Shown piece by piece: positions 53,410-54,037 of a DNA stretch of 64,000 nucleotides. The position numbers and the translations under genes are program-made. Under the pieces are notes generated by a model, which ran no database searches, was not told where the DNA came from, and saw only the letters and a program-made list of their open reading frames with translations. The DNA is taken from NCBI RefSeq assembly GCF_009931435.1, contig NZ_CP043414.1; one strand, written 5' to 3'. The first letter of the stretch is position 1, and every line of letters starts with the position of its first letter. Source of the DNA: Escherichia coli. Lineage in GTDB: Bacteria > Pseudomonadota > Gammaproteobacteria > Enterobacterales > Enterobacteriaceae.

Positions 53410-53856
53410 CTAGTCCGTCACTGTTAATGTGTTATCTGGCTCTGAAAATATTAGCTCATTTAATTTTTGCATGTCATTAGATGAACCAGTTATACAACCC
53501 TCGGAACAGAATCGAGGTCCTAAAGATGGACCAAAAGCGTTTAAACAACTATGTATTAAAAATCCATCACGATTATACGTTTCTGTATTTGCTGACGGTA
53601 CTAAACGTATACCATTAGGTTTTCTATTAGTTGCTCCAGGACCATTAACATTCCAGGTCCATACCCCTTGAGGTATTGGGCCTCTATTTTGTAAGTGTGT
53701 ACAACCAGGATTATTTTTACATTGCATATTATTACCATTATTACCAGAGGCGACTGAAATAGTAAGCACACCATAAGAATTATCATCACCTGGTATATCT
53801 GAAACACACGAAAGCATACCTAAAGTTATGCTGTATAAACAGGTGGCTAATCCCAA
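53410..53856 (-). CDS. orphan Rhs C-terminal toxin domain, L,D-transpeptidase-like (Tlde1/DUF2778-like)
   Basis: ORF track 148 aa; no ATG at its head (track start is TTG). Contains ...GPIPQGVW...[30 protein letters not shown], i.e. His-x16-S-x-G-C, the arrangement of an L,D-transpeptidase catalytic motif. A roughly 35-codon Rhs core remnant ending ...[10 protein letters not shown] precedes it (53857-53960) in another frame. Confidence 0.5.
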
Positions 53857-54037
53857 GGGGATCGATTCCAGAAATCGGGTTCAAAGGATACTGATAAAAA
53901 TTCCACCTACCTTCCAGCCCAATCGGAGCCTGAGTGTTATACCGCCCCTGCTGCGGTTAATGTTACCGATAATAGTTATAGTACAGCCCTGATTCATCAT
54001 CATACTACTGCTGCGGCAGTCTGATGAATTATTGCTT

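Follow-up and report, generated by a model that had tools for sequence, protein, structure and literature searches.

At the end of the rhs array in the 64,000-nt stretch of Escherichia coli DNA analysed here (the window), a fragment of Rhs core and the toxin that follows it are read in frames one base apart, and the offset falls in a run of four C residues (C4). This arrangement raises the question of whether the locus is a decayed silent cassette, a slippage-prone switch or a sequencing error, the three causes offered in a first-pass annotation of this DNA, and whether a toxin that looks intact can still be made or deployed.

Frame structure of the terminal rhs cassette

The window includes the E. 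coli rhsA region, where the ORF list and Pfam place all of the relevant genes on the minus strand. The features are as follows.

58178-62371, minus strand: resident full-length rhs, 1,397 aa, heading the array (ORF list, Pfam)
56371-57579 and 55508-56365, minus strand: orphan module 1, in frame, an Ntox34 toxin and then a HEAT-repeat YibA-like gene
54684-55466 and 54038-54511, minus strand: orphan module 2, in frame, the latter interval being yibG
53852-54028, minus strand: degenerate Rhs core remnant, in the core frame (translation, alignment to rhs cores)
53857-53860, minus strand: C4 run with the +1 insertion splitting the DPLG and toxin frames (in-frame counterpart GAC CCG TTG GGA in loci L003 and L005)
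53786-53851, minus strand: out-of-frame tail of the core frame, 21 junk residues and then TGA at 53788-53786
53410-53856, minus strand: intact Tlde1-like toxin ORF, 148 aa from TTG 53856 (PF10908, alignments, fold)
53777-53793, minus strand: interval of the recombination breakpoint (K-type informative sites 5', F-type 3')
52884-53405, minus strand: intact Imm57-family immunity gene, 173 aa, 4 nt past the toxin stop (PF15596, E = 1.4e-44)

The junctions of the main rhs and the two upstream orphans are canonical and in frame (DPLGLE, DPLGLE and DPQGLV). The broken Tlde1/Imm57 module, stacked behind all three, closes the array, and yibH, yibI and mtlR/D/A come after it. The whole 10.1-kb array is 99.4% identical to that of E. 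coli 2020CK-00188 and about 96% identical to those of E. coli B and others. In K-12, YibA presumably follows rhsA directly, and the order of the array suggests that a new tip pushed the K-12-type tip into an orphan position. The C-terminal domain of the resident rhs product is Cys-rich (the region of 57852-58650, minus strand), and the gene is followed by a 108-aa hydrophobic ORF that has no Pfam match. Elsewhere in the window, a JUMPstart RNA element at 11589-11627 on the plus strand (RF01707, 55.2 bits against a 35-bit threshold) is the sole Rfam match, and the gap between mtlD and mtlA (about 48130-48440) holds a short repeat in two near-identical copies, visible as repeated peptides in spurious ORFs, which look like intergenic repeats of the REP/BIME type.

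Translation of the minus strand bears out the one-base offset that had been described between the DPLG core frame and the toxin ORF. The core frame reads GAT (53863-53861), CCC (53860-53858), CTT (53857-53855) and GGG (53854-53852), or DPLG, while the toxin frame reads TTG GGA TTA GCC (LGLA) and is open from behind a TGA at 53883-53881 to a TAG at 53412-53410. The CCCC at 53860-53857 is the only such run in the region, and removal of one C gives GAT CCC TTG GGA TTA GCC ACC TGT, which encodes DPLGLATC. As had been predicted, any fusion made through the C4 junction would be frameshifted; it would consist of DPLG and 21 junk residues, ending 21 codons past DPLG. RefSeq labels the equivalent stub in other genomes as [quoted passage not shown], and adds a separate, overlapping tlde1 CDS from the TTG where the toxin ORF is intact. 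In 2020CK-00188, the RefSeq pseudo-CDS stops at the equivalent TGA and shares 71 nt with the tlde1 CDS, which is read in a different frame. The TTG that annotation pipelines call as a start is the leucine codon (DPLG-L) of the former DPLGL junction, and is a candidate start only; the other in-frame candidates are CTG 53871 and ATG 53817.

A further defect, beyond those in the first-pass annotation, lies within the core remnant itself. The remnant is a start-less rhs core fragment, and the ORF list holds no ATG, GTG or TTG ORF in the core frame. Its translation (FIRLPQQ, stop, YDDESGLYYNYYR, stop, H, stop, PQQGRY...) has three in-frame stops, a TAG at 54007-54005 and TAAs at 53965-53963 and 53959-53957. 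These features weigh on the proposal that programmed ribosomal frameshifting at CCC-C makes one protein of the stub and the toxin. The proposal has the homopolymer at the junction in its favour and nothing more. Ribosomes would have no point of entry, with the last stop at 53959-53957 and no initiation codon after it in the core frame, and a stub of 35 codons could not supply the full shell that Rhs delivery requires. Programmed frameshifting is hardly a credible account of this junction.

The ancestral junction and the length of the C run across E. coli

The first-pass annotation had regarded DPLGLATC, obtained on removing one C, as the canonical junction, and comparison with homologues and other E. 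coli genomes agrees. In 13 homologues from several genera (sources include Ralstonia, Paraburkholderia, Rhizobacter and metagenomes), the motif DPxGLAxC stands directly before the toxin, and its D, G, L, A and C are invariant. Since all 13 have G-L-A-x-C immediately behind DPx, the likeness of the offset sequence to this junction is not due to chance. When one genome per species was scanned, the toxin turned up as the C-terminal part of unbroken Rhs ORFs of 1,514-1,798 aa, the carriers being a proteobacterial MAG, Lysobacter, Stenotrophomonas, Pseudoxanthomonas and Luteimonas. The junction is in frame in the closest relative, from Superficieibacter (80% identity), and also in 128 E. coli genomes, where GAT ATT GAC CCG TTG GGA TTA GCG ACC TGT encodes DIDPLGLATC. 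Examples of this in-frame group are DFL.5, ST648 and ECONIH1, and Tlde1 and Imm57 are annotated as intact among the genomes listed. Judged by sequence comparison, the in-frame junctions of the homologues and of the 128 genomes indicate that the in-frame state is ancestral and that the window carries a one-base insertion.

The first-pass annotation had also proposed comparing this junction across E. coli genomes, and the comparison was made in 5,426 complete genomes, using queries of 38-39 nt so that each 28-nt megablast seed covers the entire run. The 39-mer with C4 across the run matched 3,448 genomes, a set that takes in K-12 MG1655 and many O157:H7 strains; the C3 version matched 3 and the C5 version none. 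Over 94 nt, the C4 junction is exact in 1,860 complete genomes, K-12 MG1655 and O157:H7 again among them, and 1,629 more have a few substitutions in this stretch, its length being unchanged among the matches listed. These counts bear directly on the suggestion that the extra C in the window is a sequencing or assembly error. While homopolymer indels are a common artefact, and one assembly (SCU-152) errs both here and at 19 nearby sites, the C4 junction recurs in identical form in thousands of independently sequenced complete genomes, and the nearest relative of the window, 2020CK-00188, also has C4. The chance that the fourth C is an artefact is close to nil.

Partial matches to the cassette were also found. 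PEC408 has an IS1 exactly at the junction (L006, 2289-2986), KGu016 has an ISAs1 in place of the 3' part of the toxin, where the match ends (L004, 2207-3342), and the in-frame genomes sampled have the core stub cut by ISAs1 (L003, 342-1488). The cassette has thus been struck repeatedly by insertion sequences.

The three C3 genomes are of two kinds. Over 3.65 kb, SCU-152 (L007, NZ_CP051698.1) differs from C600 by 20 homopolymer indels. In this public “complete” assembly, the indels make yibA, yibG and other genes seem frameshifted, and single-base homopolymer differences in it should not be trusted. The other two are clonal soil isolates with one further indel in 3.6 kb, and in both of them the toxin is still truncated by a downstream deletion.

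A slippage-prone, phase-variable switch between a fusion-competent and a silent state was a second suggested cause. The offset does sit in a homopolymer, C3 occurs in three otherwise identical contexts, and in the two clonal soil isolates, with so few other indels, C3 may be genuine. Nevertheless, the census of run lengths is almost uniform, with one of the few exceptions coming from the error-rich SCU-152 assembly, and neither state of the supposed switch could be expressed, given three stops and no start in the stub at any run length and downstream truncation of the C3 toxins. Contingency-locus tracts that slip at useful rates are far longer than four bases. Such tracts vary in length among close relatives and have one length that can be expressed; the C4 run shows neither property. 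Monomorphic in about 99.9% of carriers, it is a fixed mutation and not a contingency tract, and a switch at this site is very improbable. Of the three causes that had been offered, ordinary decay of a silent orphan cassette alone remains. Since C4 is the normal state in most E. coli, the offset is neither an error to be “corrected” nor a regulatory switch, and should not be treated as either.

Nature and origin of the intact toxin and immunity genes

The toxin had been described as Tlde1-like, and this description holds up. The translated ORF matches Pfam PF10908 (Tlde1_dom) at 35.6 bits over residues 44-132 (gathering cut-off 30.1, E = 1.4e-8). Tlde1a, a Salmonella T6SS L,D-transpeptidase-like effector, has the catalytic motif H-X14-17-(S/T)-H-G-C-h (PMC9638812). 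The motif in the window is H-X15-S-E-G-C-I, and the alignment shows that all family-invariant residues are kept. The His, Gly and Cys of the motif are invariant in 21 homologues, almost all of which have Glu in place of His immediately ahead of the Gly. An AlphaFold2 (AF2) model built with the 21 homologues has a mean pLDDT of 87 and a pTM of 0.82. When this model was compared with the PDB using Foldseek, every one of the nine best matches was an L,D-transpeptidase or a carboxypeptidase (DpaA, Bd1075, Pgp2, Ldt-fm and others), with E values of 7e-4 to 2e-2 and TM scores of 0.44-0.59; Tlde1a is absent among the matches listed. Searching solved structures with a profile of alignment A1 gave matches to Rhs core ends alone, because A1 included core residues, and to no Tlde1 chain by sequence; the fold was instead checked via the AF2 model. 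The name “Tlde1-like” is justified at the level of domain and predicted fold, with a variant motif.

A lipobox-like MLSC motif at the N-terminus of the toxin was considered as a lipoprotein signal peptide through which a stand-alone product could be exported, and rejected. It has no basic n-region and is not conserved, most homologues having GGRLVC instead; the AF2 model places these residues in two confident beta-strands, and both Cys residues are invariant.

The Imm57 gene lies directly after the toxin gene, and it is this gene arrangement that points to it as the cognate immunity gene. Whether the gene is intact is set by the length of an A run, located at 53000-52994 on the minus strand in the window, and this length varies among strains. 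Among eight sequences compared, the run is A7 and the gene intact in the window, DFL.5, TUM14759, PEC408 and SCU-152, whereas C600 has A8, and 2020CK-00188 and MEI1A-0323 have A6, the gene being annotated as frameshifted in all three. Some of these variants may be assembly errors. The A6/A7/A8 variation is a length polymorphism of the sort that the C4 run lacks. A sigma-70-like pair (ATGACA, an 18-nt spacer and TAATAT) at 53448-53477 on the minus strand lies inside the 3' end of the toxin gene, 43 nt 5' of the Imm57 start. As a candidate promoter it could give the Imm57 gene its own transcript, with the caveat that the region holds no more such sites than shuffled sequence.

The history of the toxin and immunity genes differs from that of the junction. 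Informative sites were defined as positions where the K-12 type (K) and the in-frame type (F) differ. At 21 of 21 such sites 5' of the breakpoint, from 53952 to 53793, the window is of K type, and at 75 of 78 sites 3' of it, from 53777 to 52716, the window is of F type (Fisher p = 1e-18). In the toxin body, dS between the window and the F type is 0.047 and dN is 0.019, as compared to a dS of 0.28 between K and F; 5' of the breakpoint, dS between K and F is 0.24. The abrupt switch from K to F sites, together with the low dS, shows that the intact toxin body and the Imm57 gene of the window arrived by homologous recombination behind a junction that was already broken. The alternative that the window type is the ancestor of the K-12 type was rejected, since divergence from the F type switches abruptly at 53793/53777. 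The same mosaic was found in 1 of the 5,426 genomes, 2020CK-00188, in which Imm57 is already frameshifted.

The K-12-type toxin, by contrast with the intact ORF in the window, has lost 9 nt in frame and then a single base (L002, C600 about 1800-1870, equivalent to about 53700-53760 in the window). The 1-nt deletion offsets the +1, and some 50 scrambled codons, stops among them, precede the point at which the core frame rejoins the toxin frame. Selection on the toxin is evident at the level of the family: dN/dS between the toxin in the window and its Superficieibacter homologue is 0.06, and the toxin family has long been under strong purifying selection, which explains the flawless look of a copy imported not long ago. 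For the window against the donor type, dN/dS is 0.41, a value based on 11 differences, too few to gauge current selection.

Fate of the cassette and comparison with known systems

Taken together, these data support the view, to which we assign a probability of roughly 85%, that the orphan rhs-CT/immunity module closing the rhsA-region array, the third in the series, is a dead cassette. On this view, a piece of Rhs core in the ancestor ran in frame via PxxxxDPLG-LATC into a Tlde1-like peptidoglycan toxin, followed by Imm57. In an ancestor of most E. coli, the DPLG codons gained one base (CCC to CCCC, or some equivalent change), and the core stub gained its three nonsense codons. Because of the insertion, translation in the core frame is unable to enter the toxin, and a crossover grafting the junction onto a full-length rhs would yield an Rhs protein ending in the 21 junk residues. 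The broken state then became fixed and has since been inherited vertically, with no toggling. In most genomes, K-12 included, the toxin decayed further through the 9-nt and 1-nt deletions. In the window and one other strain, everything 3' of about 53785 was swapped by homologous recombination for the intact allele of the in-frame lineage, and this replacement is why the toxin and immunity ORFs are intact although the older junction ahead of them is broken.

The main competitor to a dead cassette is the expression of the toxin/immunity pair on its own, from a promoter inside the remnant and a start at CTG 53871, TTG 53856 or ATG 53817. If this were the case, the frameshift would have uncoupled the toxin from Rhs delivery without silencing it and turned Rhs cargo into a free-standing pair, a TA-like or stand-alone Tlde1 module kept by addiction or delivered in some other way. 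Stand-alone Tlde1 effectors exist (PMC9638812). Moreover, orphan Rhs toxins of Salmonella use internal promoters, with transcription starting 89 nt 5' of the PxxxxDPxGL codons and translation at CTG or ATG, and similar internal promoter sequences have been reported in E. coli (PMC7043789). In the window, the region equivalent to the Salmonella promoter falls inside the remnant, and CTG 53871 and TTG 53856 are in the toxin frame. In addition, PGAP calls a tlde1 CDS from the TTG, and both ORFs are intact with every invariant residue kept. However, intactness is explained by recent import, as indicated by the low dS to the donor type and the sharp breakpoint, and in the sister mosaic genome, 2020CK-00188, the immunity gene is already frameshifted.

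Several features of the sequence around the candidate starts also argue against independent expression. No sigma-70-like promoter was found by a scan of the minus strand at 53857-54037, from yibG to the toxin. In the whole region, the scan found 8 sites as compared to 10.6 expected from shuffles, fewer promoter-like sites than in shuffled sequence, although this is only weak negative evidence. The candidate starts are either non-ATG codons or an ATG with an AGG 1 nt away. Shine-Dalgarno energy does not discriminate: the value is −3.3 kcal/mol at the TTG, and −3.2 and −3.5 at the presumably genuine starts of the immunity genes nearby. The stub and functional cores differ by 26%. Lastly, a cytoplasmic peptidoglycan enzyme without an export signal could not reach its target, and the hydrophobic stretch at the N-terminus is predicted to form beta-strands, not a signal peptide. 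Expression of the pair on its own is therefore unlikely, and its more specific form, in which the imported Tlde1-like toxin and Imm57 are expressed from the dead stub by a P2-like promoter with CTG 53871 or TTG 53856 as the start, is somewhat less likely again. We infer that the toxin is not expressed.

A dead cassette could in principle be rescued by recombination with the resident rhs, and the first-pass annotation had considered recombination of this cassette onto the full-length gene. Its expectation of a frameshifted product stands, but the event itself is less likely than had been assumed. The remnant is 74% identical over 191 nt to the 3' core of the main rhs (the last 60 or so codons), with a longest exact run of 22 nt; against the main rhs and the two upstream orphans, compared at the 3' ends of their cores, identity is 74, 71 and 70%, respectively. 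Roughly 23-27 bp is usually quoted for efficient RecA recombination, which puts the longest run at or under that limit. With 74% identity and no exact run beyond 22 nt, rescue by recombination with the resident rhs appears unlikely.

The decay of this cassette as a pseudogene is already known, since K-12 carries it and RefSeq flags it; all that is new is that the intact toxin/immunity part of this strain arose by recombination, a point which, like the three stops in the remnant, goes beyond the first-pass annotation. Orphan toxin arrays are patchworks, and in this one an intact toxin/immunity allele entered by recombination behind an already defunct junction. A spare cassette can hence pass ORF criteria as intact, yet be useless for Rhs delivery.

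The closest known counterparts are the K-12 remnants past yibG at the rhsA locus, which we take to be yibS/yibW/yibV/yibU of EcoGene. They occupy the same place, between yibG and yibH, and their core stub and junction are exact over the 94 nt tested, sharing C4 and the three stops. They differ in that the K-12 toxin has the two extra deletions and K-12 Imm57 is frameshifted at A8, whereas both are intact in the window. RefSeq describes the K-12 remnants as an incomplete Rhs core with an internal stop and an “Imm57 family immunity protein, frameshifted”. A literature search on the K-12 pseudogene names yibS and yibW returned unrelated papers only. The in-frame cassette of the 128 E. coli genomes shares with the window its locus, a near-identical toxin body and the same intact Imm57. 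It differs in its GAC CCG TTG GGA junction and, in the genomes sampled, in the ISAs1 that cuts its stub; in DFL.5, yibJ and yibG are absent upstream.

The toxin resembles Tlde1a in having the Pfam Tlde1_dom above threshold, a predicted L,D-transpeptidase fold and a conserved His...Cys motif. Unlike Tlde1a, which is a stand-alone effector with an (S/T)-H-G-C-h motif, the domain in the window is the C-terminal cargo of an Rhs protein, has S-E-G-C-I and is next to Imm57; at the sequence level, it could be matched to none of the solved Tlde1 chains. Tlde1-type effectors are also characterised by L,D-carboxypeptidase and D-amino-acid exchange activity on peptidoglycan, and by delivery that depends on the T6SS.

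Orphan rhs-CT/rhsI modules were defined in Dickeya, Yersinia and Salmonella (Poole et al. 2011, PMC3150448; Koskiniemi et al. 2014, PMC3967940). Like the module in the window, they consist of a promoterless, start-less core fragment, a CT and an immunity gene, and they are stacked 3' of a full-length rhs. Salmonella orphans are activated by recombination within homology common to the main and orphan genes (PMC3967940). One important difference is that functional orphans are in frame and homologous enough to recombine, whereas the core fragment in the window is offset by +1 from its toxin across PxxxxDPxGL, is interrupted by stops and matches the resident rhs over no more than 22 nt without a break.
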